A program made the translations under genes and the position numbers. The notes below the pieces were generated by a model. That model saw nothing but the letters and a program-made list of their open reading frames with translations, was not told where the DNA came from and made no database searches. Of a DNA stretch of 64,000 nt, positions 24,395 to 43,383 are shown in pieces. Numbering within the stretch: position 1 is the stretch's first letter; every line of letters begins with the position of its first letter. The stretch lies in contig CAYPXZ010000016.1 in assembly GCA_964414785.1 (NCBI GenBank), forward strand, positions 677-64,676, written 5' to 3'. Source of the DNA: an uncultured Opitutaceae bacterium (GTDB taxonomy: Bacteria; Verrucomicrobiota; Verrucomicrobiia; Opitutales; Opitutaceae).

Positions 24395-24445
24395 GGGGTG
24401 TTCCTCGGGTTTGAAGCCTGTTCTGGGTGGGGGCCGAATATGCTG

Positions 24446-25732: not shown

Positions 25733-25870
25733 GCCGGTGGGGAAAGCTGCGGAAAGCACGCTATGTGCCACATGTCCCGCCGCAAGGCTCCATACCGCAA
25801 AGGCCGCCCAAACTGAAACCCCGGCTTGCCGCGGCCCGCGCGATGGCAACATTCTTGCTCTCAACCGCTG

Positions 25871-28871: not shown

Positions 28872-29902
28872 TGAACCCGCTCCGGACGCCCAGGCAGGCC
28901 CCCGCGCTCGTTTGCGCCCTCCTTGCGTGCATGCTGGCCGGGTGTTCGAGGCCGGCGCCCGTGAGCCTCCCGGAGTCGGGGGTGGCGAAGACGCTTCCGA
29001 GGATCCGCTTCAAGACCGACTGGTACCCCCAGGCGGAGCACGGCGGCTTCTACCAGGCCCAGGCCAAGGGGTATTACCGGGATGCCGGGATCGACGTGGA
29101 CATCCAGCCGGGTGGGCCCGGCGTCCTCGTTTGGCAGCTCATGGTGGCGGGCCAGTGCGACATCGCCGTCAGCCGCAGCGACGACGTCGCCGTCTGGGTG
29201 TCGAAGGGCCTGCCGTTCATCGCGGTCGGCGCCTACATGGAGGGCGACCCGCAGGCCATCCTCGTCCACGACGAGAGTCCGGTCAGGACCTTCGCGGACC
29301 TGGACGGCAAGACGATCATGGGGGTGCCGGGATCGAACTGGATCGACTACCTCAAATTCCACTACCATATCGATTTCCGGCTCATTCCATCGAACTACGG
29401 GATCGCCCAGTTCATGGCGGACAAGGACTTCATGCAGCAGTGCTTCGTGACCAATGAGCCCTACTACGTCCGGAAGAATGGAGGGCATCCCCGCACGCTC
29501 CTCATGTCGGATTCCGGGTTCCGTCCCTACCGGATCCTCTTCACGACCCAGGGCTACCTTAAGGACCATGCCGCCGAGGTGCGCGCGTTCGTCGCGGCCT
29601 CGGTGCGCGGCTGGACGGACTTCATGAACGGCGACCCGACGCCCGGAAAGGCCCTCATCGCGAAGGCCAACCCCAACATGTCGGAGGAGTTCATGGACTA
29701 CTCGATCAAGGCCATGCGCGACTGGAACCTCGTGTCCGGCCGGCTGGCCGAGGGCGAGCGCATCGGTCTCATGACCCGCCGACGCCTCGAGGAGCAGGTC
29801 AACGACCTCTTCCAGCTGAAGATGATTCCGCAATTGATCCCGGTCGATAAATTTGTTCGATTCGACCTCATGCCGGAAGACCTTCAATCCGGGGCCAAGT
29901 AG
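28871..29902 (+). CDS. NMT1/THI5-type ABC substrate-binding lipoprotein (SBP-1)
   Basis: Lipobox LLACMLAGCS, then KTDWYPQAEHGGFYQAQAKGYYRDAGIDVDI, typical of NMT1/THI5-like binding proteins. Confidence 0.85.
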   Translation: MNPLRTPRQAPALVCALLACMLAGCSRPAPVSLPESGVAKTLPRIRFKTDWYPQAEHGGFYQAQAKGYYRDAGIDVDIQPGGPGVLVWQLMVAGQCDIAVSRSDDVAVWVSKGLPFIAVGAYMEGDPQAILVHDESPVRTFADLDGKTIMGVPGSNWIDYLKFHYHIDFRLIPSNYGIAQFMADKDFMQQCFVTNEPYYVRKNGGHPRTLLMSDSGFRPYRILFTTQGYLKDHAAEVRAFVAASVRGWTDFMNGDPTPGKALIAKANPNMSEEFMDYSIKAMRDWNLVSGRLAEGERIGLMTRRRLEEQVNDLFQLKMIPQLIPVDKFVRFDLMPEDLQSGAK

Positions 29903-29919
29903 TCGGTTATATCCAGTTA

Positions 29920-29935
29920 ATAATCAATTGATTAT
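29920..29935. promoter_or_regulatory. 16-bp perfect palindrome ATAATCAATTGATTAT upstream of TonB-dependent receptor 1
   Basis: Read directly, in a 114-nt AT-rich intergenic region 82 nt before the receptor ATG. The ATAATC/GATTAT arms are reminiscent of Fur-type boxes but do not match the E. coli consensus. Confidence 0.4.
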
Positions 29936-30016
29936 GCCGTAGAGGTATAAGGCAATTCATTGGCCCCATAAGATGCACGCATTGCATCCATCGAACACCA
30001 TCAAGAAAAATTATTC

Positions 30017-32593
30017 ATGCACCTCAACACCAAGAGACTCCTTCTGAAGGGCCCGGCGCTGCTGGGCCTCGTAATCGCGCTGAGCGCCGGACTCCGGGCG
30101 CAGTCATCGACGCCGCCGCCGTCGAGCCCCTCGGACTCGTCCACGACCCCCGCAACGGCAAACCAGAAGGTCACCACGCTGGAGAAATACACGGTGAGCG
30201 ACGTGCCGATCACCGAGCAGGTGCTCCCGACCGTCCGCCCGATCAACAGCGTCTACGGCGACGACCGAAGCATCATCGACATCCCGAGGTCGGTCTCGAG
30301 CGTGAACAAGGCCTGGATGGATGACCGGCAGGTCAAGAACGCGATGGACTTCGGGCAGTTCTCCCCGGGCGTATACGCCTCGGCCAACTACGGCATCCCG
30401 GGGGTTCCCCAGGTCCGCGGCGACTACGCCCAGATCTACGTGGACGGCCAGATCATCCCGTTCTCGCGAAACAGCACGTCGCTTTCGTTCAACGGCGTCG
30501 AGGCGATGGACATCGTGAAGGGCCCGGGAACGGCCGTATACGGCCCGCAGGGCAACGGCCCGGGCGGCTACGTCAACTTTGTGCCGAAGGAGCCCTATTT
30601 CGACCACGACCACACGGACATCTCGGCCACATTCGGCTACTGGACGAGCGGCCACTCCTACGCGAATCCGGAGTACACCATCGATTTCGGCGGCCCCCTG
30701 AGCGACAAGCTCGCCTACCGGGTGAGCTACCTGGGCCGGTACGGGGAGGGCTACTATCTCAACTCAAAGGACGAGACCCAGGACCTTTACGCGGCCCTGA
30801 CCTACCAGGCCACGAAGGACCTCAAGTTCGAGCTCTGGGGCGAGGGATTCGCCACGCGCACGAATGAGATCACCGGCGCGAACCGCGTCACGGAGCAGTT
30901 CATCAAGAACGGGACCTACATCGGCGGGCCGGCCATCCCCTCGATATCCCAGTATGGCTTTCCCTTTGGCGTGGATATCTATGCCCACCCGAACGACCCC
31001 TACACGACGATTGCCGACGGTTCGTACGTCATCGTGGATCCCGCCCACCTGTATACGACGAAGCTGCCGGCCTACGACGCGCTGGTCGGGCCCTATGACA
31101 CAGCCCGCTCCAAGCTCTTCGAGGGCCAGCTGAAAACGACGCTCGGGCTCTCGACCGACACATCCATCGTCAACCTCGCGTACTTCGGCCTCGAGCATTC
31201 CAACAAGTTCGAGACCTACGGCTACGACGAGTATATCCCGAGGAGCGAGTCGATCCAGGACCGGCTCGAGTTCCACACCAAGCTGGAGACGGGCAAGGTC
31301 GAGAACAACATCATCACGGGCCTCGACTACAGGTACACCTACCTGAGGGCCTACGACGACTACCAGACCGAGCCCTTCACCTACTACGACGTGAACCAGT
31401 CGCTCTCCAACATCTTCTACCCGGGTTACTACGCGGAGGGCGAGACCTGGGGCGGCGGACTTCAGGTCCCGGGGCATCCCGGCTACAGCACGGTCGAGCA
31501 CCAGGACAGCACGATCAAGGACTACGCCGCCTTCATCCAGGACGACGTGAGGTTCACCGATAGGTTCTCGGCCATCCTCGGGTTCCGCGAGGACTACATC
31601 TTTGCCAACTCGGCAAATCCCCCGTTCACGCAGGTGGGATACTACAACCAGTACTTCGAGTATGTTCCCCTGACCACGCCGATCTTCTTCGACCGCGGCG
31701 GCACCTACAGCGCCACCGCCGCGCGGTACGATCCGTCCTATTTCGCGAGCCTGATCTACAAGCTGACGGAGACGCAGTCCGTCTATGCCACCTATGACCG
31801 GGTGGACGCCACGCACGGGGCGACCAACTTCGGCGGCGTCGACAGCGGCGGCAACGGCACGGCCTACGGGATCGGCCAGTTGCCCCAGGGCAATGCGGGG
31901 ACCGTCGCGACCTCGATCTCAGTGGGCAGCACGCTCTACGAGGTCGGCTACAAGGGCAGCTACCTCGGCAACACGCTCTTCGTGAGCGCCTCGCTCTTCC
32001 AGCAGGACAAGGTTGAGTCCCAGCTCAAGGGCCCTCCGTTCAGGATCAAGGACAACGGCATTGAGCTGGACGTGATCTTCCAGCCCACGAAGGCGCTGAC
32101 GATCAACGGAAACCTGACGTACCAGGACGCGACGGCATTCGGGGACTACTTCTTCCAGGAGACGGGAAGCTACCTCGACGCCTACTCGACCTCGACCATC
32201 GTCGATGGAAAGCCCGGCACCGGAGTCGGCGCCGTCAACTATACCGGATACGTGCCGCCAACGGGCCGCATGCGGGCCCCGGGCGTCCCGCAGCTGATCG
32301 CCAACCTGTTCGTCGAGTACAAGTTCACGAACGGCATCGGCATCGGCGCGGGCCCGAACTTCATCGGCAAGCAATACGCCGACGACGAGGATGCGCTCTA
32401 CATCCCGAATGAATACGAGGTGGACGGCTACCTCATCTACGCCCCGAGCAAGAAATGGGATATTCGATTGAATATCACCAACTTGACCAACAATCGGGTA
32501 CTCGACCCGATCGACGTGAGCTTTGCGGGTAACGACACGATATTCGTGCGCAAGCCAATCTCGGCGTCGGTGACGTTCCGCCTGCACTACTGA
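30017..32593 (+). CDS. TonB-dependent receptor (paralog 1)
   Basis: 858 aa with a signal peptide, a plug domain (IDIPRSVSSVN, MDIVKGPGTAVYGPQG) and a long beta-barrel ending in an aromatic residue (FRLHY). Confidence 0.9.
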   Translation: MHLNTKRLLLKGPALLGLVIALSAGLRAQSSTPPPSSPSDSSTTPATANQKVTTLEKYTVSDVPITEQVLPTVRPINSVYGDDRSIIDIPRSVSSVNKAWMDDRQVKNAMDFGQFSPGVYASANYGIPGVPQVRGDYAQIYVDGQIIPFSRNSTSLSFNGVEAMDIVKGPGTAVYGPQGNGPGGYVNFVPKEPYFDHDHTDISATFGYWTSGHSYANPEYTIDFGGPLSDKLAYRVSYLGRYGEGYYLNSKDETQDLYAALTYQATKDLKFELWGEGFATRTNEITGANRVTEQFIKNGTYIGGPAIPSISQYGFPFGVDIYAHPNDPYTTIADGSYVIVDPAHLYTTKLPAYDALVGPYDTARSKLFEGQLKTTLGLSTDTSIVNLAYFGLEHSNKFETYGYDEYIPRSESIQDRLEFHTKLETGKVENNIITGLDYRYTYLRAYDDYQTEPFTYYDVNQSLSNIFYPGYYAEGETWGGGLQVPGHPGYSTVEHQDSTIKDYAAFIQDDVRFTDRFSAILGFREDYIFANSANPPFTQVGYYNQYFEYVPLTTPIFFDRGGTYSATAARYDPSYFASLIYKLTETQSVYATYDRVDATHGATNFGGVDSGGNGTAYGIGQLPQGNAGTVATSISVGSTLYEVGYKGSYLGNTLFVSASLFQQDKVESQLKGPPFRIKDNGIELDVIFQPTKALTINGNLTYQDATAFGDYFFQETGSYLDAYSTSTIVDGKPGTGVGAVNYTGYVPPTGRMRAPGVPQLIANLFVEYKFTNGIGIGAGPNFIGKQYADDEDALYIPNEYEVDGYLIYAPSKKWDIRLNITNLTNNRVLDPIDVSFAGNDTIFVRKPISASVTFRLHY

Positions 32594-32620
32594 CGGAGGC
32601 GCCGCAGAGGATATACCCGA

Positions 32621-32649
32621 AAAGGGGGCCCGAAAGGGCCCCCTTTTTC
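32621..32649 (+). terminator. Rho-independent terminator
   Basis: AAAGGGGGCCC-GAAA-GGGCCCCCTTTTT, a perfect GC stem with a GNRA-like loop and T-tract, 28 nt after the receptor 1 stop. Confidence 0.85.
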
Positions 32650-32790
32650 ATTGGGCCGCAGGGGGCGGCGCACGCGCAAAGTGGAAGCAGGCACGCAGAT
32701 AGGGTGCCAAAAACCTTCACCATAGGGCGCATGGCATGGGGGTTGCTAGAATCGGGTAAACCAACACCTGAAACCTAGTACCCAAACCGA

Positions 32791-35409
32791 ATGACCAAGA
32801 AACTCGTACTCAAGGGCCCGATCCTCGTGGGCGTGGCCTGCCTGATGGGCACCAGCCTCTTTGCGCAGTCCTCGACACCGCCTCCCGCCGCGTCCGCCGA
32901 GGCCGCCGCGGAGGGACAGAAGGCGACCAAGCTTGAGAAATACACCGTCAGCGACGTGCCGATTTCCGAGCAGGTGCTCCCGACCGTCCGCCCGATCGGC
33001 GACGTCCTGGGAGATGACACAAGCATCATCGACATCCCGCGATCCGTTTCCAGCGTCAACGCGGCGTGGATGAAGGACCGAATGGTGAAAAACGCCATGG
33101 ACTTCGGGCAGTTCTCCCCGGGCGTCTACTCGGCGGCCCAGTACGGCATCCCCGCGGTCCCCTTCATCCGCGGCGACCTCGGCTCGGTCTACGTCGACGG
33201 CCAGATCTCCATGTTCTCGCGCAACAGCACGCCGCCGAGCTTCAACGGCGTCGAGTCGATGGACATCGTCAAGGGCCCGGGCTCAGCGGTCTACGGGCCG
33301 CAGGGCGAGGGCGCCGGCGGCTACGTCGACTTCGTCATGAAGCAGCCGTACTTTGACAAGGACCACGCGGACATCGACGCCACGCTCGGCTACTGGTCCA
33401 GCGGCAAGATGTACTCCAATCCCGAGGTGACCCTGGATTTCGGAGGGCCTCTGAGCGACAAGTTCGCGTACCGGGTGAGCTACCTCGAGCGGTGGGGCAA
33501 CGGCTACTACGCAAACCTCCACAACTCCTCGCAGGACCTCTACGCGGCCATGACGTACCTGGCGACCAAGTCCCTGAAGTTCGAGGGCTGGATCCAGATG
33601 TATTCCGACAAGACCAACGAGAACACCGGCGTCAACCGCGTGACCCAGCAGTTCATCGACCACGGGACCTATGTCGCCGGCCCCACCTCCGTCCCGGAAT
33701 CCGGCCCCGACGCCTTCTTCGGGTACGACATCGCCAATCCGGGCGACCCCGTCGGCGCCTACGGCTCCTATCCCGACGGCGCGCTGCAGACCGTCACGAC
33801 GGCGACGGCGCACACCGTGAAGCTTCCGATGACCGCGGCCCTGATCGGGCCCAACGACACCGCCCGCTCAAAGCTCTTCCAGGCGCAGCTCAAGACCACG
33901 CTCGATCTCTCGACGGACTCGTTCGTCGTGAACCGAGCCCTGTTCTCGCTCGGCCGCTCGAACAAGTTCGAGACCTACGGCTATGACGAGTACGTCCCGC
34001 GCGAGGAGTCCATCCAGGACCGCCTCGAGTACCACGCCATCATGAAGTTGGGGTCGGTCGAGAACCACCTGATCGCAGGCGCCGACTTCCGGTTCTCCTA
34101 CCTGATCGCGTACCAGGACTTCACGACGGAGCCGTTCTCCTACTACGACCTCTCGCAGTCGGCATCCACGATCTACTATCCGGGCTACATCATGGAGGGT
34201 AAGACCTGGGGCGGCGGCGCCTCGGTCCCGGGAGCCCAGGGCTACAGCGCCAACGGCGAGTCGCCCGACACAGGCGGCTCCTCGGGCAACCAATGGTCCT
34301 ACATCTACGACACCGCGGTCTTCCTGCAGGACACCATCAAGGTCACGGACAAGTTCTCGATCACCCCGGGCTTCCGCTGGGACCACATCCAGGCGACCGA
34401 CTCGTCGCCGCCGGTCATCGAGCAGGGGTACAACGCGTACTTCACCTATTACCCGCTCACGACCCCGATCTACATCCCGCGCGGCCAGTCGAGCCCGCTC
34501 ATGGTGGATGAGTCCGGCCTCGGCGACGGCACGCACCCGACCTACGAGGGTTTCAACACGAGCGGCAGCAAGGACGACGAGTCCTACTTCCTGAGCCTCG
34601 GGTACAAGCTGACCGACACGACCTCGGTCTACGCGACCTACGACCGCGCGACGGCAATCCTCGGCACGTCGAACTTCGGCGGCCTCAACGTGAATCCCGT
34701 CGACGGAAACGCGGCCCTCTCGCTCCAGAAGTCGCTCGCCGCGCTGAGCACCCTCTACGAGGTCGGTATCAAGTCGAGCTTCCTCAACAACACGCTGTAC
34801 GGGAGCGTGGCGCTCTTCCAGCAGACGAAGTTTGGCGTCCAGATCGGCGGCGCCACCGACCTGATCAAGGACCAGGGCATCGAATTGGACGCCGTCTACC
34901 AGCCCTCAAAGGCCTGGACCGTGAACGGCAACTTCACCTACCAGAACGCGACGGTGTTCGGAGGCTCGTTCTTCCAGGAGACCGGCAACTACCTCGACAC
35001 CTACAACCCGGACTACATCGTGAACGGGCTCCCCGGCACGGGATTGGGCGCCCCGAATTTCACCAGCTACAAGCCGCCGACCGGCAGGATGCGGGCGCCC
35101 GGCATCCCGGCGATGCAGGCGAACCTCTTCCTGGTCTACACGTCGCCGATGGGCTGGGGCGCCGGCATCGGCCCCCAGATCCAGGGCAAGCAGTACGCCA
35201 ACGACCAGGAGACCCTCCACATCCCGCTTGAGACGGAGTGGGACGGGTATCTCTTCTACGGCAAGAAGGAGTGGGACGTCCGCCTCAACATCAAGAACCT
35301 CCTGAACGAGCGGATCCTGGACCCGATCGACGTGAGCTTCGCGGGCAACGACACGATCTACGTGCGCCCGCCGATCACGGCGTCGGTGACGTTCCGCTAC
35401 CACTATTGA
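32791..35409 (+). CDS. TonB-dependent receptor (paralog 2)
   Basis: 872 aa, colinear with paralog 1 and sharing long identical blocks (KYTVSDVPI.EQVLPTVRPI, IIDIPRSVSSVN, NAMDFGQFSPGVY, LDPIDVSFAGNDTI). Confidence 0.9.
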   Translation: MTKKLVLKGPILVGVACLMGTSLFAQSSTPPPAASAEAAAEGQKATKLEKYTVSDVPISEQVLPTVRPIGDVLGDDTSIIDIPRSVSSVNAAWMKDRMVKNAMDFGQFSPGVYSAAQYGIPAVPFIRGDLGSVYVDGQISMFSRNSTPPSFNGVESMDIVKGPGSAVYGPQGEGAGGYVDFVMKQPYFDKDHADIDATLGYWSSGKMYSNPEVTLDFGGPLSDKFAYRVSYLERWGNGYYANLHNSSQDLYAAMTYLATKSLKFEGWIQMYSDKTNENTGVNRVTQQFIDHGTYVAGPTSVPESGPDAFFGYDIANPGDPVGAYGSYPDGALQTVTTATAHTVKLPMTAALIGPNDTARSKLFQAQLKTTLDLSTDSFVVNRALFSLGRSNKFETYGYDEYVPREESIQDRLEYHAIMKLGSVENHLIAGADFRFSYLIAYQDFTTEPFSYYDLSQSASTIYYPGYIMEGKTWGGGASVPGAQGYSANGESPDTGGSSGNQWSYIYDTAVFLQDTIKVTDKFSITPGFRWDHIQATDSSPPVIEQGYNAYFTYYPLTTPIYIPRGQSSPLMVDESGLGDGTHPTYEGFNTSGSKDDESYFLSLGYKLTDTTSVYATYDRATAILGTSNFGGLNVNPVDGNAALSLQKSLAALSTLYEVGIKSSFLNNTLYGSVALFQQTKFGVQIGGATDLIKDQGIELDAVYQPSKAWTVNGNFTYQNATVFGGSFFQETGNYLDTYNPDYIVNGLPGTGLGAPNFTSYKPPTGRMRAPGIPAMQANLFLVYTSPMGWGAGIGPQIQGKQYANDQETLHIPLETEWDGYLFYGKKEWDVRLNIKNLLNERILDPIDVSFAGNDTIYVRPPITASVTFRYHY

Positions 35410-35435
35410 CCAGCAGACAGTCCTGACTGCTGATG

Positions 35436-35466
35436 AAAGGGGGGCCTCACGAGGGTCCCCCTTTTT
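35436..35466 (+). terminator. Rho-independent terminator abutting the next start codon
   Basis: AAAGGGGGGCCTCACGAGGGTCCCCCTTTTT, an imperfect GC-rich hairpin plus T5. The SBP-2 ATG starts 2 nt later. Confidence 0.7.
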
Positions 35467-35467
35467 C

Positions 35468-36424
35468 ATGAAACCGCTCCTCTGCCTCTCGCTCCTCCTG
35501 GCGGGCCCGCTGTCGGCGGGCGTGCCGATCACCTACTACCAGGACTGGTTCCCGGGCGCGCAGTTCGCCGGCCTCTACGAGGCGCTGGACCGGGGGTTCT
35601 ACGGGGCGGCGGGCCTCGACGTGACGGTGCATGCCTTCGCGTTCGGCCAGGATGCGGCGGGGATGATGGACGCGGATCCCTCGAGGGCCGCCGTGGGGAC
35701 CGTGGAGGGCTATATCCTGCTCCAGAAGCGCGCTAAGGGAGGGGACCTCCGGGCCCTCTCCGCGGTGCTCCGGGAAAGCCCCGCAGGGTACATGACCCTT
35801 CCCGGCAGGGGCGTGGATTCCGCGAGGGGCTTCGTTGGGAAGCGGGTCGGCGTCCACCGGTACGGGGACCCGCTGTTCCGCCTCTTCCTCCGCCGCGCGG
35901 GCGTCGACGAGGCGAGCGTGACGATGGTGTTCGTCGACGACGACGTCGGACGGCTCGTTCGCGGCGAGGTGGACGCCATGCAGGGCTACGCGATCGAGGA
36001 GCTCGTCCGGCTGGGGCGGCGGGTCGGGTCCGGCGAGGGCTTCCTCTCGTTCCGCGAGCTGGGCTTTGACGCCTATTCGCAGGTGGTCTTCTCGACGGGC
36101 GCCCAGGTGCGCGAACACCCCGGCGCGCTCCGGGCGTTCGTCGGCGCGACGCGGGAAGGCTGGGCCTACGCGATCGCCAATCCCGACCGGGCGGTCGACG
36201 CGGTCATGGCCCGCATGGGCGCCGGGGCCGACCGCGCCCTGGTGAGGGACATGTTCCTTGCGACGGTCCGGTTCGTCGCGCCCGGCGGCGAGGCGCCGCT
36301 CGGTCCCATGGACCCTGTGAAGTGGCGCGGCATGGCGGCCGCCTGCGTCGAGATGGGGATCCTGCCCCGCGCCGAGGACCCGGGAGTCTTCCTCTCCGGT
36401 GAAGTTACTTCAGGCCCGCGGTGA
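35468..36424 (+). CDS. NMT1/THI5-type periplasmic binding protein (SBP-2, divergent, non-lipoprotein signal)
   Basis: Signal MKPLLCLSLLLAGPLSAG, then ITYYQDWFPGAQFAGLYEALDRGFYGAAGLDVTV, the same fold signature as SBP-1 and SBP-3. Confidence 0.75.
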   Translation: MKPLLCLSLLLAGPLSAGVPITYYQDWFPGAQFAGLYEALDRGFYGAAGLDVTVHAFAFGQDAAGMMDADPSRAAVGTVEGYILLQKRAKGGDLRALSAVLRESPAGYMTLPGRGVDSARGFVGKRVGVHRYGDPLFRLFLRRAGVDEASVTMVFVDDDVGRLVRGEVDAMQGYAIEELVRLGRRVGSGEGFLSFRELGFDAYSQVVFSTGAQVREHPGALRAFVGATREGWAYAIANPDRAVDAVMARMGAGADRALVRDMFLATVRFVAPGGEAPLGPMDPVKWRGMAAACVEMGILPRAEDPGVFLSGEVTSGPR

Positions 36425-37259
36425 TGAACTCCACGAGCTGCGCCATTTGCTCGTCCGTGTAGCGGGGGTGCGCCTCCATCTTCGCGCTGGGGACGAGCGA
36501 CTTCGGATCGCGGACGTATTTCAAAAAGAAAGGCCGGTCGTAGGCGGCAAAGGCCGCGAGGACCTGGAACGGACGCCCCGCCTTCGTGCCCCCGAAGGTG
36601 CCGGCAGGGCCCGAGTGGCAGCTGGCGCAGGAATTCACCCAGATCTCGCGTCCGGCCCGCCCGGCCGGGCCCGCGGAGGCCCAGGGGCCCGAGTAGATGC
36701 CCCTGAAGCGCTCGGCGAAGGAGGCGACCTCGATCGTTGTCACGCCCCACGGCTTCTTGTGCTCGATGTCCAGGAACGCCGCGGCCGCCGGGACGAGTTC
36801 CGCGGACACGGTCACGACGTACGGGGCGGGGTTGAACTTCAGGCCCGGGGGCGGCCAGTCCGCCGGCCCCTTGCCGTTGATCTCCAGGACGAGGAAGGGC
36901 CTGTAGGTCCCGATGAAGCCGGACGTGAAGATGCCCACGTAGCCGTCGCCGCAGGTCGCAAAGAGCGCGTCGGCCCCCGGCAGCGCGGGAAGCGCCCTCC
37001 ACAGGTCGGACAGGAAGACGACCGTCAGGACCTGGGGGCCCTTCACGAACTCGCCGTCGAGGCGGACCTGGGAGGTCGGGAGCGCGCGCAGGTCCTCCCA
37101 CGAGGCGTATCGCGTCTCGCCCGCGGCGACGCCCGCCAGCTGGCCGGTCAGCGCAAGGTCAAAGGGCGAGCCCCGCTGCGCATGGAGCTCCAGGGCGCGC
37201 CCGGGGGCGGCGAGCGCGAGGACGGCTGATGCAACGGCCGCCGCGTACTGCAGTTTCAT
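36405..37259 (-). CDS. Secreted cytochrome c-domain protein (CxxCH) with N-terminal oxidoreductase molybdopterin-binding-like domain
   Basis: 284 aa with a signal peptide and a C-terminal CASCH heme-c motif. The N-terminal ~190 aa (LDGEFVKGPQVLTVVFLSDL..., FLVLEINGKGP) resembles YedY/sulfite-oxidase-like substrate domains. The N-terminal assignment is tentative. Confidence 0.5.
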   Translation of the reverse strand: MKLQYAAAVASAVLALAAPGRALELHAQRGSPFDLALTGQLAGVAAGETRYASWEDLRALPTSQVRLDGEFVKGPQVLTVVFLSDLWRALPALPGADALFATCGDGYVGIFTSGFIGTYRPFLVLEINGKGPADWPPPGLKFNPAPYVVTVSAELVPAAAAFLDIEHKKPWGVTTIEVASFAERFRGIYSGPWASAGPAGRAGREIWVNSCASCHSGPAGTFGGTKAGRPFQVLAAFAAYDRPFFLKYVRDPKSLVPSAKMEAHPRYTDEQMAQLVEFITAGLK

Positions 37260-37345
37260 GGAGCGGTTGATAGCACGAAGGGTGCCCGGACTGCGAGTAC
37301 TGCGCTGTTGCGGGCGCCCGGGGGGTTCTCTACGGATTTGCCCGG

Positions 37346-38353
37346 ATGACGCCCCTTCGACCCGGATTGCTCGCCGCCGCGCTCGCCTCGGCCCTGGCCG
37401 TATGCGGCTGTTCGCGGAGCGCGCCGGGGGATACCTCGGCCGGGGCGGGAGCCACGGCGCCCTTCAAGATCACGGTCCAGCTCGACTGGGTCGCGGAGCC
37501 CGAGCACGGGGGGTTCTACCAGGCCCTGGCGAAGGGGTATTTCAAGGAGGCGGGCCTGGATGTGAACGTGATCCAGGGCGGCCCGAACGGCTACGTCCTG
37601 CAGAAGGTGGCGACCGGCCAGGCCGACTTCGGCCAGTCGGACAGCACGAACGTGCTCCTCGCGATCAACCAGGGCCTTCCCATCATCCAGGTCGGCGCCG
37701 TGTTCCAGAACGACCCCTCGGTGCTCATGCTCCACGCCGACAACCCGGTGAAGACCTTCGAGGACCTGAACGGGAAGACCATCATGGCCCGCCTGGAATG
37801 GGCGTTCCTGCCGTACCTCAAGAACAAGTACCACATCGACTTCAAGATCATCCCCCAGAACTTCGCGGTCGGCAATTTCATCGCCGACCCGAACTTCATC
37901 CAGCAGGGGTTCTACACGGCGGAGCCGTATTTCATCGTGAAGGGCGGGGCGAAGTACCCGAAGTTCCTTTACGCCTGGGACGCGGGTTTTGACGCCTACA
38001 CCTGCATCGTCGCGAACCGCCGATGGGCCGAGGCGAACGCCGCCCACGCCCGCGCGTTCATGGCGGCCTACATCAGGGGCTGGAAGGACTACATCGAGGG
38101 CGACCCGGCTCCCGCGCACGCGCTGATGAAGCAGGTGAACCCCAACGTGACGGACGGATTCCTTGCCTTCTCACACAAGATGATCGTCGACGAGAAGCTG
38201 GTCATTGGGCGCCACGCCACGGACGACTCCCAGACGGGAAGGATCTCGGGGGAGCGCTTTGCCGTCCAGATCCGCCAGCTCGAGGACCTGGGGATCCTCC
38301 CCAGGGGAAAGCTGACCGCCGACCAGGTCATGACGACCGCCTACCTCCCATGA
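37346..38353 (+). CDS. NMT1/THI5-type ABC substrate-binding lipoprotein (SBP-3)
   Basis: Lipobox ALAVCGCS and QLDWVAEPEHGGFYQALAKGYFKEAGLDVNV. It is clearly paralogous to SBP-1 along its full length. Confidence 0.85.
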   Translation: MTPLRPGLLAAALASALAVCGCSRSAPGDTSAGAGATAPFKITVQLDWVAEPEHGGFYQALAKGYFKEAGLDVNVIQGGPNGYVLQKVATGQADFGQSDSTNVLLAINQGLPIIQVGAVFQNDPSVLMLHADNPVKTFEDLNGKTIMARLEWAFLPYLKNKYHIDFKIIPQNFAVGNFIADPNFIQQGFYTAEPYFIVKGGAKYPKFLYAWDAGFDAYTCIVANRRWAEANAAHARAFMAAYIRGWKDYIEGDPAPAHALMKQVNPNVTDGFLAFSHKMIVDEKLVIGRHATDDSQTGRISGERFAVQIRQLEDLGILPRGKLTADQVMTTAYLP

Positions 38354-38769
38354 AGACACCTCCGGCTTTTCTCGCCTGCCTCTGCGCGCTCGCCCTCGCC
38401 GGCTGCGGCCACCTGGAGCTCTCGCCCGAGGGGGACCCCCTCAGGGTGCTCACGGGCCAGGTCGACCTGGGGGACGCCGTCGCGCTCCCCTCGGACGCGA
38501 CGGTGACGGTCCGCGTCGAGGACACGTCGGCCGCCGGCATGCCGCCCCAGGTGCTGGGCTCGCAGACCGTGAGCAACCCCGGGACGGCGCCCATTGCCTT
38601 CCGCCTGGAGTACCGCGCCGAGGACGAGGTCCTTCGCCGGGGCCTCAACATCGAGGCCCGCGTCTCCTATTCCGGGAGGGTGCAGTACTACAACGTGAAC
38701 CGCTACGTCGTGACCCTGGGCAACGCAACCGACCCCCATCGCATCAGCGTGGTGCCCGCCAGTCGGTGA
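38350..38769 (+). CDS. YbaY/YscW-like lipoprotein
   Basis: Lipobox ALALAGCG, then LTGQVDLGDAVALPSDATVTVRVEDTSAAGMPPQVLGSQTV...PIAFRLEY, matching the YbaY family pattern. Its ATGA overlaps the SBP-3 stop. Confidence 0.7.
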   Translation: MKTPPAFLACLCALALAGCGHLELSPEGDPLRVLTGQVDLGDAVALPSDATVTVRVEDTSAAGMPPQVLGSQTVSNPGTAPIAFRLEYRAEDEVLRRGLNIEARVSYSGRVQYYNVNRYVVTLGNATDPHRISVVPASR

Positions 38770-39731
38770 AGATCTGGTCCAACGGGGATTTCGGGAGCGA
38801 GGGTATGGCGCTACTGGCGGGGGGCGTCGGCACCCACTCGCTCGTGCTTTCGGACAGCCGCAACAGCTCCGTGCTTGCCGGCGGCCAGCGCGACCCATCG
38901 ATCGCCGGCGCGGACATTGCCTTCGGGCAGCCGGCGCCCGAGGACTGCCTCGCAAACCCGGGCCTGCGCTGGATCGAGGTCTCGAGCGCGGGCTACACCC
39001 GCTACGACACCGCTGAATTCCGGGAGGCCATGCGCTCGCGCGGCACCGTGTTCACGAATGCGTCCCAGGCCTATGCGGATGCGTGCGCCGAGCATGTTCT
39101 CGCGATGATGCTTGCCCTTGGCCGCCAGCTCCTCCCCTCGTTCGCCACGCAGCAGGGTGATCGGTCGTGGCCCTACCAGGAACGGCGAGACCAGTCGCGC
39201 CTGCTCACGGGCCAGACCGTCGCCCTCCTTGGGTTCGGAGCGATCGGGCGCCGGCTCGCGGAGCTCCTCGCCCCCTTCCATGCAAGGGTCTTCGCCGTCC
39301 GGCGCAGCATCCGCAGCGAGCCCGGCGTCCGGGTCGTCGCGGAGGAGAGCCTGACCATGGTCCTCGCCGAGGCCGACCACGTGGTGAACGTGCTCCCCGA
39401 GAACGACACCACGCGCAACTACGTGAACGCGCGGCGGATCGCCTGCTTCAAGCCGGGGGCCCGTTTCTACAACGTCGGCCGGGGGACGACCGTGGACCAG
39501 GACGCCCTCATCAAGGGCCTCGAGTCCGGCAGGATAGGGGCCGCCTACCTCGACGTCATGGTTCCCGAACCCCTTCCGAAGGAACATCCGCTCTGGTCCG
39601 CGCCGAATTGTTTCATAACCCCGCACACGGCAGGGGGTCGCAACAACGTGAACGAGGAGCTCGTGCGCCACTTCCTCGCGAATCTGGCGCTCTTCCAGAC
39701 GGGCGGCCAACTGGTCGACCGCGTCCTGTGA
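38766..39731 (+). CDS. D-isomer-specific 2-hydroxyacid dehydrogenase family protein
   Basis: NAD-binding LLGFGAIGRRLA, and catalytic-region ARFYNVGRG and DVMVPEPLP...ITPHTAG. The GTG start overlaps the upstream stop. Confidence 0.82.
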   Translation: MKIWSNGDFGSEGMALLAGGVGTHSLVLSDSRNSSVLAGGQRDPSIAGADIAFGQPAPEDCLANPGLRWIEVSSAGYTRYDTAEFREAMRSRGTVFTNASQAYADACAEHVLAMMLALGRQLLPSFATQQGDRSWPYQERRDQSRLLTGQTVALLGFGAIGRRLAELLAPFHARVFAVRRSIRSEPGVRVVAEESLTMVLAEADHVVNVLPENDTTRNYVNARRIACFKPGARFYNVGRGTTVDQDALIKGLESGRIGAAYLDVMVPEPLPKEHPLWSAPNCFITPHTAGGRNNVNEELVRHFLANLALFQTGGQLVDRVL

Positions 39732-39768
39732 CGTTTCCGTGGCTTGGACCACGGACTGCCGATCGCGG

Positions 39769-39805
39769 TTGAATTTTGGCCCATCCGGGGGAATAATACC
39801 CCCGG
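39769..39805 (+). promoter_or_regulatory. Candidate sigma70-like promoter (TTGAAT-17 nt-AATAAT) whose -10 lies in the loop of an inverted repeat CCGGGGG-N7-CCCCCGG
   Basis: Read directly, about 90-120 nt upstream of the precursor-peptide ATG. Confidence 0.3.
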
Positions 39806-39890
39806 TAGTAACTCTTATACCCACACCGCACGGATCGGCACAGTGCCGGGCCGTGGCGGGCACTCCGAAACCCAACAATAGAAGTCTGTT

Positions 39891-40148
39891 ATGAACAAAT
39901 CGACACGTTTCATCGTCACCGCCGCGGCCATGGCCGGGCTCTATGCAGGATCGATGGCCACGCGCGCTTATGCCGATGGCGCTGCCGGAAGTGGTGATTC
40001 CTCCAAGGATGCCTCCAAGGACGCGGGCAAGCACGATTGTAAGGGCCAGAACTCGTGCAAGGGCCAGGGCGGCTGCAAGGCCGGCGACAACGGCTGCAAG
40101 GGCCAGAACTCCTGCAAGGGCAAGGGCGGCTGCAACACGAACAAGTAA
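39891..40148 (+). CDS. bufA: Sec-exported Cys-rich RiPP precursor, bufferin BufA2-like (6-Cys type)
   Basis: 85 aa. Signal peptide MNKSTRFIVTAAAMAGLYAGSMATRAYA|DG, a Ser/Asp/Lys-rich linker, then the core CKGQNSCKGQGGCKAGDNGCKGQNSCKGKGGC (six Cys, two repeats). It lies directly upstream of the DUF692/DUF2063/DoxX genes. Confidence 0.8.
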   Translation: MNKSTRFIVTAAAMAGLYAGSMATRAYADGAAGSGDSSKDASKDAGKHDCKGQNSCKGQGGCKAGDNGCKGQNSCKGKGGCNTNK

Positions 40149-40196
40149 GGGACCGGCCGAGCTCAGCAACGTCAGCCTCAAAGGACCTTTAGCGAC

Positions 40197-40227
40197 GCGG
40201 CCGGCTGGAACGCCGGCCGCGTTTTTT
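40197..40227 (+). terminator. Strong intrinsic terminator/attenuator between precursor and modification genes
   Basis: GCGGCCGGC-TGGAAC-GCCGGCCGC followed by GTTTTTT. It ends 4 nt before the DUF692 ATG. Confidence 0.8.
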
Positions 40228-40231
40228 CAAT

Positions 40232-41080
40232 ATGCCCGCCAACCGATTCAACGGCCACTGCGATTACGGCATCGGCATCGGACTGCGGGTTCCCCACTAC
40301 TCGCACATCCTCTCGAAGAAGCCGGTCGTGGACTGGTTTGAGATCATCTCCGAGAACTTCATGGTCGAGGGGGGCAGGCCCCTTGAGCTGCTGGACAAGA
40401 TCCTCGAGCAGTATCGCGTCGTGCAGCACGGCGTCTCGATGTACTTCGGCTCGGCGGACAAGCCCGACCGGGCGCACCTGAGGAGGCTCAAGAACCTGGT
40501 GAAGCGGACGAAGACGCCCTGGCTCTCGGACCACCTGTGCTGGGGCAGCGTCGACGGCACGTACACCCACGACCTGCTCCCGATGCCCTACACGTTCGCC
40601 GCGGCCCGGCGCACGGCGGAGAAGATCCGCCAGACCCGCGACTTCCTCGAGATCCCCATCTGCGTCGAGAACGTGAGCAGCTACGCCGAGTTCCACGCCT
40701 CCGAGATGACCGAGTGGGAGTTCCTGAGCGAGGTGGTCGAGCTCGCGGACTGCGGAATCCTGCTCGACGTGAACAACATCTACGTCTCGTCGAAGAACCA
40801 CGGGTTCGACCCGTACGATTACGTCAACAACGTGCCGCACGACCGCGTCGGCCAGATGCACATCGCCGGGCACACCAAGTTTGAGAAGTACATCCTCGAC
40901 ACGCACGACCACCCCGTGCTCGACCCCGTGTGGAAGCTCTACGCGAGGGCGACCGAGCTGTGCGGGGTGTCGGCCACCCTCCTTGAATGGGACGACAAGA
41001 TCCCGTCGTTCGACGAGGTCCACAATGAGGCCCTGAAGGCGAACGAGTTCATCGACGGCGCGAAGAAGGCGGTGGTGTGA
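40232..41080 (+). CDS. bufB: DUF692-family multinuclear non-heme iron oxidative enzyme (MNIO; MbnB/BufB-like)
   Basis: 282 aa with GIGLRVPHY, VDWFEIISENF, HGVSMYFGS, LSDHLCW, HDLLPMPYT, VENVSSY, LLDVNNIYVSSKNHGFDP, HIAGH and DTHDHPV, which are all DUF692 hallmark blocks. Confidence 0.9.
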   Translation: MPANRFNGHCDYGIGIGLRVPHYSHILSKKPVVDWFEIISENFMVEGGRPLELLDKILEQYRVVQHGVSMYFGSADKPDRAHLRRLKNLVKRTKTPWLSDHLCWGSVDGTYTHDLLPMPYTFAAARRTAEKIRQTRDFLEIPICVENVSSYAEFHASEMTEWEFLSEVVELADCGILLDVNNIYVSSKNHGFDPYDYVNNVPHDRVGQMHIAGHTKFEKYILDTHDHPVLDPVWKLYARATELCGVSATLLEWDDKIPSFDEVHNEALKANEFIDGAKKAVV

Positions 41081-42012
41081 AGAGGCCGCCCAAGCACGCC
41101 CCGGAGAGGATCGCCTCCACCGAGGACCTCCGGTCGTTCCAGCGGATGATGGCGACCGCGGTGACCCGGCCCATGACGGCGCAGGACGGACTCCAGTCCC
41201 GCTGGATCGACGGGCGCCCGATGGCCAGGGTCGCGGCCGAGTTCGTCAAGCCCAACGACAGGCTGAGCTCATTCGAGCGCCTCGAGCTCTACAACCAGAT
41301 GTACTGGTTCCGGCTTTTCAGCGCGATCCAGGACGACTGCCCCGGCCTGCGCGCGGCCCTGGGAGACGGCAAGTTCATGCGCCTGGCCCGGGCGTACCTG
41401 GCCAAGTGCCCATCCCGCTCGTTCACGCTTCGCGACCTGTGCTCGCGCCTCGTGGAGTTCATCCGCAAGAACCCACGGCTGACGGCCCCGCGGACCGCCT
41501 TGGCGGTCGAGATCGCCCGCTTCGAATGGGCCCAGACGGTGGCCTTTGACGGCGAGGCGAGGCCGGTCGTGGACGCGCAGGGGTTCGCCCGGACGCCCCC
41601 GGACCGGCTGCGCCTCGGCATCCAGCCCTACCTCACGCTGCTCGACCTGCGCCACCCGATCGATACCTACGTGATCTCGGTGAAGCGCCGCGAGGTGATG
41701 CGCTCCGAGGCGAGCAACACTCCCGATGCGAGCGCCTTGCCCGGCCGCGCGGCCCGACGGCCCTCGCTGCCGCGTCCGTCGCGGACATGCGTCGCCGTCC
41801 ACCGGCACAACAACCGCCTCTTCTACAAGCGCCTGAGCCCGGCCGCGTACCGCATCCTTGCTGAACTGGCCCGGGGGCAAACGCTCACCCGGGCGGTGGC
41901 CGCCGCGGGGCCCGGGGTGAGGCCGGCGCAGGTCCGGGCGTGGTTCACCACCTGGATGGCGCTCGGCTGGTTCTGCGCCCCCGGGAACAAACGGCTCCCG
42001 AGGGCATCCTGA
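41077..42012 (+). CDS. bufC: DUF2063-domain partner protein (BufC-like)
   Basis: 311 aa. LELYNQMYWFRLFSAIQDDCPGLRAALGDGKFMRLARAYLAKCPSRSFTLRDL is typical of the DUF2063 N-terminal domain. The GTGTGA overlap with bufB indicates translational coupling. Confidence 0.8.
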   Translation: MKRPPKHAPERIASTEDLRSFQRMMATAVTRPMTAQDGLQSRWIDGRPMARVAAEFVKPNDRLSSFERLELYNQMYWFRLFSAIQDDCPGLRAALGDGKFMRLARAYLAKCPSRSFTLRDLCSRLVEFIRKNPRLTAPRTALAVEIARFEWAQTVAFDGEARPVVDAQGFARTPPDRLRLGIQPYLTLLDLRHPIDTYVISVKRREVMRSEASNTPDASALPGRAARRPSLPRPSRTCVAVHRHNNRLFYKRLSPAAYRILAELARGQTLTRAVAAAGPGVRPAQVRAWFTTWMALGWFCAPGNKRLPRAS

Positions 42013-42035
42013 TCGCCGACGGCGCCCCAACCCCC

Positions 42036-42494
42036 ATGAAACTCCTGTCCAAACTCCACGCCCTGCTCGCCAGGGCAGGGCACCTCCTGCAGAGCCCGCT
42101 CCTCCTCGTCATCCGGGCCTATTGGGGCTGGCAGTTCATTGGCACGGGCTGGGGAAAACTCCACCGGCTCGGCGACGTGACGAAGTATTTCGCGAGCCTC
42201 AACATCCCGGCCCCCCACCTGAACGCCATCCTGGCGTCGTCGACCGAGACCCTGGGCGGAGTCCTGCTGATCCTCGGCCTGTTCACCCGCTTCGCGTCGC
42301 TCGCCCTGATTGGCGTCATGTGCGTCGCCTACGCGACGGCGGAGAGGGAGGCCCTGAACGCGATCTTCAGCGACACGGACAAGTTCTTCGGCGCCGCGCC
42401 GTTCCTCTTCCTCTATGCGGCCGTCCTCCTGTTCGCGTTCGGTCCCGGCAAGCTCGCCGTCGACGCGCTTATCGGCAGGGAAAAGAAGGGCTGA
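42036..42494 (+). CDS. DoxX-family membrane protein (BufD-like)
   Basis: 152 aa with four TM segments. LLLVIRAYWGWQFIGTGWGKL and TETLGGVLLILGLFTRFASLAL are DoxX-like. Confidence 0.8.
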   Translation: MKLLSKLHALLARAGHLLQSPLLLVIRAYWGWQFIGTGWGKLHRLGDVTKYFASLNIPAPHLNAILASSTETLGGVLLILGLFTRFASLALIGVMCVAYATAEREALNAIFSDTDKFFGAAPFLFLYAAVLLFAFGPGKLAVDALIGREKKG

Positions 42495-42513: not shown

Positions 42514-43323
42514 TCAGCTTTTCGGGTTGCAGAGGTCCTCGTACGCGTAGGCAAACGCGCCGACGACGACGGGAAGGGCGATGAAGATGCCCACGCCGAG
42601 GGCCGCAAAGCCCAGCAGGAAAAAGGGTATGCCGAGCAGGATGAGCCCGCAGACCCTCCACCACTGCCGCGTGACGACGCGGCGGCTGGTCTCCATGGCC
42701 TCCCAGAAGCCCAGACCCTTGTCGACCGCCAGGATGTAGGTGAACGGGTAGGCGAACGCCAGGTAGATCCCTGGGATCACCAGGCAGATGAGCCCGACGG
42801 CGATGAAGATCGACACGAGGAGCCCCGCGATGAGGAGGTTGAGGAACGCCTTCGTGAACCCGGCAAATGCGTCGCCCAGGGTCGACGGCTGGCCGCGGAT
42901 CTTGCGCAGGAAGTAGTAATAGTACCCCGCCGTGACTACGCCCCCGAGGAGCGGGGACACGAAGAAGAGTCCCGCGTACTGGGAGTATCCCAGGCACGCG
43001 AAGATCAGCGCCATCAGGACGCTGACGCCGACCAACGGCCAGAAGTTGGCCTTCAGGAGATTCCAGCTGCGCTCGTAGCAGCTGATGATGTCGAGCTTGG
43101 CCGCGGCCGCGGAGGCCGGGACTGTCACCGGAGGCGCGCCCGCGCCGCCCGCGGGGGCGCTGCCCGTGATCTCCGGGAAATCCGCGACGGTCTTCCACGT
43201 GTCCTCTCCCGCCACCTTTATCTTCGTCTCAAGATTGGCCCGGCCGCCCGCGATCCAGGCGCGGACCTGCTCGGCTGTCACCGGCCCGTACTCCCTGCCG
43301 TCCCCTCCGATGATCGTGTACAT
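42514..43323 (-). CDS. GYF_2-domain membrane protein
   Basis: N-terminal MYTIIGGDGREYGPVTAEQVRAWIAGGRANLETKIKVAGEDTWKTVADFPE (GYF-like domain) followed by about five TM helices. Confidence 0.65.
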   Translation of the reverse strand: MYTIIGGDGREYGPVTAEQVRAWIAGGRANLETKIKVAGEDTWKTVADFPEITGSAPAGGAGAPPVTVPASAAAAKLDIISCYERSWNLLKANFWPLVGVSVLMALIFACLGYSQYAGLFFVSPLLGGVVTAGYYYYFLRKIRGQPSTLGDAFAGFTKAFLNLLIAGLLVSIFIAVGLICLVIPGIYLAFAYPFTYILAVDKGLGFWEAMETSRRVVTRQWWRVCGLILLGIPFFLLGFAALGVGIFIALPVVVGAFAYAYEDLCNPKS

Positions 43324-43383
43324 GAGGCCGATATGACCAGCGGGGGAAGCCCACGTCAACCGCGCCCGGCGTCCGGCCCCCGG

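Follow-up and report, generated by a model that had tools for sequence, protein, structure and literature searches.

Results

Four co-directional genes form a bufferin-like locus

The locus described here occupies positions 39769-42494 of a 64-kb stretch of DNA (the window; G+C content 67%) from an uncultured Opitutaceae soil bacterium of the phylum Verrucomicrobiota. Four co-directional genes on the forward strand encode, in the order bufA-bufB-bufC-doxX, a short Cys-rich precursor, a DUF692 protein from the multinuclear non-heme iron oxidative enzyme (MNIO) family, a DUF2063 protein and a DoxX-family membrane protein, with a hairpin between bufA and bufB (Table 1). As defined by Leprevost et al. 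2024 (PMC11626156), bufferins are Sec-exported precursors that BufB and BufC turn into copper-binding, copper-protective peptides carrying 5-thiooxazoles. Very likely, the locus is an ordinary, complete four-gene bufferin cluster and belongs to the type called Buf2 or "Cys-Lys captophorin". An initial sequence-only reading had proposed a bufferin-type cluster for a peptide synthesized on ribosomes and modified post-translationally (RiPP) from these same four components, and the proposal is supported by the score of BufB against its family cut-off, the iron ligands of BufB, the TglI-like fold of BufC, the recurrence of the architecture in other genomes and the published listing of the corresponding cluster of Opitutus terrae.

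Table 1. Features of the locus, with positions in the window and the basis of each assignment
Feature	Position	Strand	Basis
Promoter-like region 5' of bufA	39769-39814	+	Consensus scan and conserved motif; promoter function inferred
bufA, 85-aa precursor	39891-40148	+	Sequence, homologues, pN/pS, sub-cut-off NF050166 match
Terminator-like hairpin and U-tract	40194-40229	+	Stem/loop fold, T-rich tail; function inferred
bufB, 282-aa MNIO (DUF692)	40232-41080	+	PF05114, NF050167, iron ligands
bufC, 311-aa MNIO partner (PME1), DUF2063 and RRE-like domain	41077-42012	+	PF09836, AlphaFold2/Foldseek
bufD (doxX), 152-aa DoxX-family membrane protein, accessory	42036-42494	+	PF07681; JGI call

The precursor carries a nearly exact two-fold repeat

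The open reading frame (ORF) of bufA and its core, which reads CKGQNSCKGQGGCKAGDNGCKGQNSCKGKGGC, are exactly as the sequence-only reading had given them. The complete product consists of MNKSTRFIVTAAAMAGLYAGSMATRAYA followed by DGAAGSGDSSKDASKDAGKHDCKGQNSCKGQGGCKAGDNGCKGQNSCKGKGGCNTNK, the junction being the predicted cleavage point. Judged by hand, residues 1-28 (39891-39974) have the anatomy of a Sec signal peptide, in which the basic n-region is MNKSTR, the h-region is rich in Ala and Gly, and positions -3 to -1 read A-Y-A; cleavage is predicted after AYA and before D29, which fits the signal peptide and cleavage site proposed earlier. A variable linker rich in Asp, Ser and Lys (residues 29-49) leads into the Cys-rich core (residues 50-81; 40038-40133), where six Cys are spaced C-5-C-5-C-6-C-5-C-5-C. 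The core is built from two 13-residue units around the spacer KAGDNG. These had been taken for an exact repeat; they are identical at 12 of 13 residues (a change of Q to K) and at 36 of 39 nucleotides, and the repeat is therefore near-exact. Lys follows each of Cys1-Cys5, giving five Cys-Lys sites, and Asn follows Cys6. Inspection of BufA reveals no EGKCG motif and no match to any Pfam family, DUF2282 (PF10048) included. Its AlphaFold2 model, built from a 38-sequence alignment, has a mean predicted local distance difference test score (pLDDT) of 50.7, with the signal-peptide helix as the sole predicted structure.

The small reading frame is a conserved gene

A scan of species-representative genomes yielded 80 related loci with an MNIO 77-91% identical to BufB. 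They lie in Verrucomicrobiota, Acidobacteriota and, for two of them, Planctomycetota, and their gene content was scored by tblastn with the window proteins. The gene bufA lies upstream of the MNIO gene in all 80 loci, so the conservation of the small ORF among homologous neighbourhoods, which the sequence-only reading had named as a check, is borne out. bufC is present in 78 of the 80 and doxX in 66, in most of which it sits 3' of bufC. The best-matching locus belongs to an Opitutaceae metagenome-assembled genome with complete synteny, which places the host of the window in this family.

Among the extracted BufA peptides the six Cys are invariant, with the consensus KHxCKGQNSCKGxGGCKxGDNGCKGKNSCKGKGGC. 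Comparison of the cores (n = 66) gave pS 0.56 and pN 0.10, with synonymous sites near saturation; the resulting pN/pS of 0.18 implies that bufA is translated in this frame under purifying selection. At 90% identity, BufA homologues form upward of 4,600 clusters, and a profile search returned 2,013 representatives at 50% identity (E <=1e-3). The symmetric module is present in 143 of the top 149 profile matches and is doubled in 31, the 12-Cys forms. Lys follows Cys1-Cys5 in 56-64 of 67 relatives (64/67 for Cys1), and Ala is the commonest residue after Cys6. The gene is also less elusive than had been supposed. The precursor had been thought easily missed; the Joint Genome Institute (JGI) pipeline calls the 85-aa gene on contigs that carry an identical BufC, and for the O. 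terrae orthologue there is an annotated entry in RefSeq. At least four JGI metagenome samples (3300029957, 3300031251, 3300028577 and 3300028654) contain such contigs.

The number of Cys differs within the family. Some Opitutales peptides have extra N-terminal repeats of the CKGKDG type and 8-11 Cys (L006, L008-L011, L014, L025, L026, L032 and L038 are among the loci cited for variation), and the precursor of L032 is built almost wholly of such repeats. Forms with four Cys occur at four loci, one verrucomicrobial and three acidobacterial (L018, L064, L066 and L072 among those cited), in which other residues stand in for Cys3 and Cys4 (CKGQGGG...). Two precursor genes lie in tandem at L062, and metagenomic relatives (P0257-P0260, P0287 and P0349 among those cited) have two or three tandem 6-Cys modules with 12-15 Cys. 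The core of the signal peptide, A12-G20 (39924-39950), is unusually conserved over three phyla, with A12, A13, G16 and G20 invariant and the motif AAxAGLxxG. This motif, which is not shared by the three canonical BufA2 signal peptides examined, may also serve as a leader element for recognition by BufC.

A 456-aa antisense ORF (38811-40181, reverse strand), described in the sequence-only reading and indeed present, spans bufA and a dehydrogenase gene. We rejected it as a genuine gene. It has no Pfam match, and opposite to it lies a well-supported 2-hydroxyacid dehydrogenase gene (38766-39731); for these two reasons we read it as a shadow of high G+C content. Antisense stop-free stretches at the same position in related high-GC loci vary widely in length between loci: the median is 160 aa, and the longest exceeds 1,000 aa.

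BufB has the residues expected of a Cys-Lys MNIO

The DUF692 enzyme had been described as having every hallmark block, and BufB indeed matches PF05114 at 350.6 bits. Against NF050167, the MNIO_BufB equivalog model, it scores 341.9 bits, above the cut-off of 310. It falls far under the cut-offs of the ApyH and ChrH models. Ligands were read from an alignment to 3BWW, TglH and MbnB. The MbnBC crystal structure places the MbnB ligands at H54, H90, E133, D163, N166, H192, D208, H210 and E239 (PMC9060507), and the BufB equivalents are H66, H101, E146, D179, N182, H210, D223, H225 and E252. All nine, whose presence on alignment had likewise been named as a check, are in place and are invariant in 81 sequences.

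BufB continues from the last ligand as E252-W-D254-D255. D254, also invariant in the 81 sequences, is the equivalent of FonB Asp249, the proposed catalytic base. D255, which is Asp in 76 of the 81, aligns with the position of FonB Phe250. A catalytic Asp has been reported for these enzymes, and a Phe-to-Asp change marks the MNIOs that act on Cys-Lys, the Lys-Cys enzymes having Phe (PMC13097082). Elsewhere the same site reads ERDD in two of three proteobacterial BufB2 proteins, ERDG in the third and in a BufB1, and ERDF in 3BWW. The overall identity of BufB to proteobacterial BufB2 is 47-50%. Over Verrucomicrobiota, Acidobacteriota and Planctomycetota, BufB is 77-91% identical and the adjacent BufC 35-65%, a gap that would reflect either extreme constraint on BufB or movement of the cluster between soil phyla.

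BufC resembles TglI and is followed by a DoxX protein

The GTG start of bufC overlaps the bufB stop as GTGA, in keeping with the overlap noted from the sequence. The N-terminal domain of BufC matches PF09836 (DUF2063, HvfC_N) at 54.6 bits, above the cut-off of 27.2. A sequence search of BufC against the PDB gave no match; a fold search gave TglI. The AlphaFold2 model of BufC (pLDDT 76; predicted template modelling score 0.70) has its best Foldseek PDB matches in TglI (8hci_A and 8hi7_A; E 7.6e-6, probability 1.0), the partner of the MNIO TglH. A C-terminal strand-and-helix domain matches weakly, again by Foldseek, the RiPP recognition element (RRE) protein TbiB1 of a lasso-peptide system. As modelled, BufC is a partner protein resembling TglI, and its C-terminal winged-helix domain is RRE-like.

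The fourth gene had been read as encoding a DoxX membrane protein, an assignment that a PF07681 match of 79.6 bits confirms. Its start is likely the ATG at 42036, which gives the 152-aa product called by JGI, rather than the GTG at 41940.

The precursor differs from canonical BufA2

Among the closest described clusters is that of Opitutus terrae PB90-1 (WP_012373563/62/61/60), which has an identical four-gene architecture, belongs to the same family, Opitutaceae, and has the same precursor sub-type; it differs in being of another species and is known from a catalogue alone. Its precursor (WP_012373563.1, P0100) is 70% identical to the window BufA over 95% of the query. Antoine et al. 2025 (PMC12452194; Table S4) enter this precursor in the Buf2 (Buf_6-12Cys) column together with its MNIO, DUF2063 and DoxX genes, and treat a Koribacter protein likewise; the class is an in-house hidden Markov model of those authors for precursors with six or twelve Cys. 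Because the O. terrae orthologue is listed there as Buf2, this kind of cluster is already catalogued. The host had been described as distant from the characterized examples, which holds for its distance from those of Pseudomonadota and is offset by the presence of the family in Verrucomicrobiota and Acidobacteriota in that catalogue.

Canonical Buf2 is represented by the Caulobacter vibrioides cluster BufA2B2C2 (CCNA_02999-03001) and by the proteobacterial BufA2 proteins of NF050166. The sequences used for comparison were BufA2 proteins that pass the NCBIfam cut-off, a set without C. vibrioides BufA2 itself: among the proteins matched by an Asticcacaulis BufA2 query, none was named as Caulobacter, and the published C. 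vibrioides numbering (Cys24/Cys50) is not reconcilable with the spacings in the BufA2 sequences examined. In both the window and the canonical systems, the precursor has a Sec-type signal peptide, six Cys with identical Cys1-Cys5 spacing (C-5-C-5-C-6-C-5-C), and the motifs CKGxN and CKGxG. The MNIO of each is of the BufB type and has Asp at the position tied to Cys-Lys specificity, the partner is a DUF2063/RRE protein, and the genes run in the order A-B-C. Over Cys1-Cys5, an ungapped alignment with a bona fide Legionella BufA2 gives 56% identity across 39 aa.

The two depart from one another at the first and last Cys. In the canonical BufA2 sequences examined, Cys6 lies 12 residues past Cys5 in a C-terminal "C-L-x-x-G-G" module, whereas the window BufA has no such module; its Cys6 closes the second CKGKGGC unit and falls opposite Ile in the Legionella alignment. 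The canonical spacing C-(10-14)-C is found in 87 of 89 Asticcacaulis-type relatives and in three plasmid examples, and the symmetric spacing in none. Canonical sequences have Tyr or Ser after Cys1 and Leu after Cys6, in contrast to the window peptide, where Cys1 is itself a Cys-Lys site, so that it has five such sites as against three or four. Several canonical relatives have weak DUF2282 matches; none of the 120 BufA homologues listed has PF10048. The C. vibrioides buf2 cluster, from a different phylum, also lacks the doxX gene that the window cluster has. The precursor sub-type of the window is structurally distinct from the Buf2 peptides studied so far and is widespread among its closest relatives, which belong to three non-proteobacterial phyla. 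With five Cys-Lys motifs and BufB D255 at the FonB Phe250 position, the system has the marks of the Cys-Lys captophorin group defined by Gadgil et al. 2026.

Other identities were considered and rejected. Buf1 (bufABCD/gig) has the same four-gene layout with DoxX, its precursor is likewise exported by Sec, and thiooxazoles are introduced by its BufB/BufC pair, but the window precursor has no DUF2282 (PF10048) match, has six Cys rather than four and lacks adjacent SigF/NrsF genes. The oxazolin/fontiphorin/gonophorin group (HvfABCX, EGKCG) likewise has an MNIO, a PME1 partner, DoxX and a repetitive Cys-rich Sec-exported precursor, and its 5-thiooxazoles and copper binding would carry over by analogy. 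In contrast to the EGKCG precursors, with their Lys-Cys-Gly polarity, the window peptide has Cys-Lys-Gly; the MNIOs of that group have Phe where BufB has Asp255, and BufB scores 246.5 bits against the HvfB model, below the cut-off of 360. FonBC leaves Cys-Lys motifs such as NACKG or HNDCK unprocessed, as reported for that system. Methanobactin biosynthesis (MbnABC) also employs an iron enzyme of the MNIO fold with conserved ligands, MbnB, which acts on Cys to give a copper chelator. It differs in its MbnC partner, where the window has DUF2063, in a leader instead of a Sec signal and in a secreted oxazolone-thioamide chalkophore, and BufB scores 40.8 bits against the MbnB model (cut-off 325). 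Of two environmental studies, a peatland biosynthetic gene cluster paper (PMC13642348) does not mention MNIOs, and the 6-Cys clusters reported from Antarctic soil (PMC8692599) are gammaproteobacterial, of another clade than that of the window.

A conserved upstream motif and an intergenic hairpin

In the region 5' of bufA, a consensus scan found a single sigma-70-type match, TTGAAT-17-AATAAT, at 39769-39797. It is overlapped at 39790-39814 by the motif GGAATAA-N16-CTC. Across 12 aligned Opitutales upstream regions, GGGAATA and the downstream CTC are invariant, and GGAAT[ACT]-N14-18-CTC occurs about 100 nt 5' of bufA in 23 of 73 loci, Opitutales included, where the background rate is 0.025 per 320 nt. 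With both strands counted, a stricter version of this motif occurs just once in the 64-kb window. The motif may be a dedicated promoter, possibly of the extracytoplasmic function (ECF) type, or an operator. As GGAATA[AT]-N~16-CTC it is kept where Opitutales spacers have otherwise diverged (L001-L016, L022, L025, L026, L032, L038 and others). It resembles an ECF-type -35/-10 pair, and no sigma or anti-sigma gene lies nearby.

A hairpin terminator had been noted after the small ORF, and one is found at 40194-40223, with a 12-bp stem containing 10 G-C pairs, a 6-nt loop and a run of six T at 40222-40227 whose end lies 4 nt short of the bufB ATG. A hairpin with a T-rich tail occurs in the bufA-bufB spacer of 38 of 73 loci. 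Within Opitutaceae these hairpins are homologous; in Acidobacteriota and Planctomycetota they are non-homologous. This points to an attenuator as a recurrent feature, one that would hold precursor mRNA in excess. The window hairpin is probably such an attenuator, setting the ratio of precursor to enzyme. Neither the 5' region nor the spacer matches an Rfam structured RNA or riboswitch at the gathering score, and their fold z-scores are -1.3 and -1.4; across the 64-kb window there is no Rfam family at this score and no tRNA gene.

Neighbouring genes are linked by descent

The sequence-only reading had suggested that the adjacent EmrAB-TolC-type efflux genes or the GYF membrane protein are functionally linked to the cluster, an idea that the tblastn comparison does not sustain. 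The EmrA/EmrB/OEP operon, convergent to the cluster, is kept in 2 of the 80 loci. The GYF protein is found in 16, all but one of them titled Opitutales or relatives, and the equally unrelated dehydrogenase gene upstream in 17, again almost all so titled, a restriction that points to synteny by descent rather than to a functional link. The GYF gene itself (42514-43359, reverse strand), convergent to doxX, encodes a membrane protein that begins with a GYF_2 domain and is DUF975/YciC-like in its C-terminal part; the JGI product is shorter, at 269 aa.

Upstream, positions 22671-38769 look like an uptake and catabolism cluster for a nitrogen compound. The region encodes an amidase, an ORF with an amidohydrolase domain, an ABC ATPase, three NMT1/THI5-like binding proteins, a YscW-like lipoprotein, TonB-dependent receptors at 30017-32593 and 32791-35409 and a protein with a cytochrome c domain at 36405-37259 (reverse strand). 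Two ORFs in this part, 24446-27298 (reverse strand) and 25765-28059 (forward strand), overlap one another.

Discussion

A proposed route from precursor to periplasmic peptide

The features of the locus are consistent with the following sequence of events, in which the chemistry of BufB is taken by analogy from Buf1, Buf2, fontiphorin and oxazolin and the residues are those observed in the window enzyme. bufA would be transcribed from its own promoter about 100 nt upstream, and the terminator that follows it would pass only part of the transcripts into bufBCD, such that the precursor exceeds the enzymes. In the cytoplasm, BufC would bind the 85-aa precursor and present it to BufB, a role suggested by its modelled fold and by analogy with BufC1 and HvfC. 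BufB is expected to be a TIM barrel with a di- or tri-iron site that uses O2 to drive a four-electron oxidation of each target Cys to a 5-thiooxazole, with a loss of 4 Da each; Asp254 would act as catalytic base, and Asp255 would pair with the Lys next in sequence after each target Cys. Lippens et al. (10.64898/2025.12.15.693703) confirmed the 5-thiooxazole, which is now the unified assignment for these MNIOs.

All of Cys1-Cys5 are, from their sequence context, candidate modification sites, and no disulfide staple is predicted. Cys6 has Asn after it in the window peptide and Ala in most relatives, and it probably remains a thiol. This pattern would differ from that of C. vibrioides Buf2, in which the four central Cys are modified and Cys-I and Cys-VI are unmodified and probably joined in a disulfide (PMC11626156). 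Sec export and cleavage by signal peptidase past Ala28 would then release a Gly/Lys-rich periplasmic peptide of 57 residues, whose thiooxazole N,S pairs may chelate copper and so buffer the periplasm against metal stress, as analogous bufferins do. DoxX would be a conserved accessory membrane protein; in Caulobacter it is dispensable for both the modification and the copper phenotype (PMC11626156). Confidence is high that the biosynthetic part of this scheme is correct, namely thiooxazole formation by BufC and BufB at Cys-Lys, Sec export and cleavage past Ala28. It is lower for copper as the physiological target, which is proposed by analogy.

Weighing the assignment

Several observations count against this assignment. 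BufA scores 36.2 bits against NF050166, the BufA2 model (E 5e-9, profile positions 26-63 of 79), below the cut-off of 60; BufA relatives score 23-47 bits, as compared with 80-100 bits for the BufA2 proteins of Legionella, Asticcacaulis and Thiothrix. The placement of the precursor in the BufA2 class by the sequence-only reading holds in that Cys1-Cys5 align to BufA2, and fails in the sub-cut-off score and the absent C-terminal module. Two further proteins fall short of Hvf-family models: BufC scores 38.9 bits against NF050145 (HvfC; cut-off 142) and DoxX 69.1 bits against NF050144 (HvfX family; cut-off 80). The BufA core has a pLDDT below 50 and is predicted to be disordered, whereas BufA1 and BufA2 have been reported as small folded proteins; this disorder is weak evidence because the AlphaFold2 alignment is shallow. 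The signal peptide was judged heuristically, by hand. Because the hairpin leaves bufB no space for a Shine-Dalgarno sequence and would occlude the region where initiation occurs, even transcripts that read through may be subject to attenuated bufB translation. Scanning about 35 window ORFs gave no copper-homeostasis, ECF sigma or NrsF anti-sigma gene; with no copper gene among them, the link to copper comes from homology. Finally, readings on modification and metal for this precursor sub-type draw on sequence and analogy.

Three alternatives were weighed against the bufferin assignment. Were the small ORF a chance GC-rich, low-complexity frame, untranslated or not a substrate, with the MNIO and DUF2063 proteins acting elsewhere, one could account for its lack of a Pfam family and of an obvious Shine-Dalgarno sequence, its low-complexity composition, the UniRef title of the O. 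terrae orthologue ("Low-complexity protein") and the overlapping 456-aa antisense ORF. This explanation is essentially refuted by the position of the ORF immediately 5' of the MNIO gene in every one of the 80 loci and three phyla, its invariant Cys and signal-peptide-like N-terminus, its low pN/pS despite near-saturated synonymous sites and its significant similarity to bona fide BufA2, while the antisense ORF has no family match and faces a real dehydrogenase gene, and antisense stop-free stretches differ widely in length by locus. It is scarcely more credible that the MNIO installs another Cys modification, such as an oxazolone-thioamide, a beta-carbon excision or a cross-link. The reactions of the MNIO superfamily are varied, the substrate is unlike characterized Buf2 at its first and last Cys, and BufB is just 47-50% identical to proteobacterial BufB2. 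Yet BufB exceeds the BufB equivalog cut-off and lies far under those for ApyH, ChrH and MbnB, its catalytic and specificity residues are conserved, and for closely related MNIO-PME1 pairs the assigned product has in every case been revised to 5-thiooxazole.

A stronger contender, though still an improbable one, retains the biosynthesis and changes the target to Au, Hg, Zn, Cd or redox or sulphur stress, with the peptide acting as a disordered, metallothionein-like multi-site chelator rather than a folded bufferin. The predicted disorder of the core and the missing disulfide-stapled C-terminal module fit such a chelator, as does the want of a copper gene or SigF/NrsF-type regulator among the ORFs scanned. 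DoxX, kept in 66 of the 80 loci, belongs to proteins linked to oxidative and sulphur stress, MerC-Buf2 fusions suggest other metals for some bufferins, and gig operons, to which the sequence-only reading had likened the cluster, were first known as gold-induced genes. Set against this, every characterized relative (Buf1, Buf2, oxazolin, fontiphorin and bulbicupramide) binds copper, several of them protect against it, and thiooxazole N,S ligands suit Cu(I). We prefer a thiooxazole-bearing, copper-directed bufferin.

A possible branch of Buf2 beyond Pseudomonadota

Taken together, the observations allow a broader proposal, which we advance tentatively and regard as somewhat doubtful in its entirety. 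The locus would represent a distinct branch of Buf2 with a pseudo-symmetric, disordered (CKGxNxCKGxGGC)x2 precursor that has lost the disulfide-stapled fold, that carries five or six thiooxazoles in place of four, together with a free thiol, that behaves in a metallothionein-like manner, that has spread horizontally among soil Verrucomicrobiota, Acidobacteriota and Planctomycetota, between which BufB is about 80% identical, and whose signal peptide possibly doubles, through AAxAGLxxG, as a leader for BufC. If five or six thiooxazoles are indeed formed, more copper would be bound per peptide.

The locus adds no new principle. Bufferins and captophorins are one of the largest RiPP classes, with more than 20,000 MNIO-PME1 loci reported, and are viewed as a widespread periplasmic defence against copper; their biochemistry to date comes from Pseudomonadota alone. 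The window provides a clean and complete Opitutaceae example of the sub-type that predominates among its closest relatives in Verrucomicrobiota, Acidobacteriota and Planctomycetota. This sub-type bears on whether a Cys-then-Lys rule governs the selection of modification sites, and on how copper stoichiometry relates to the number of thiooxazoles.

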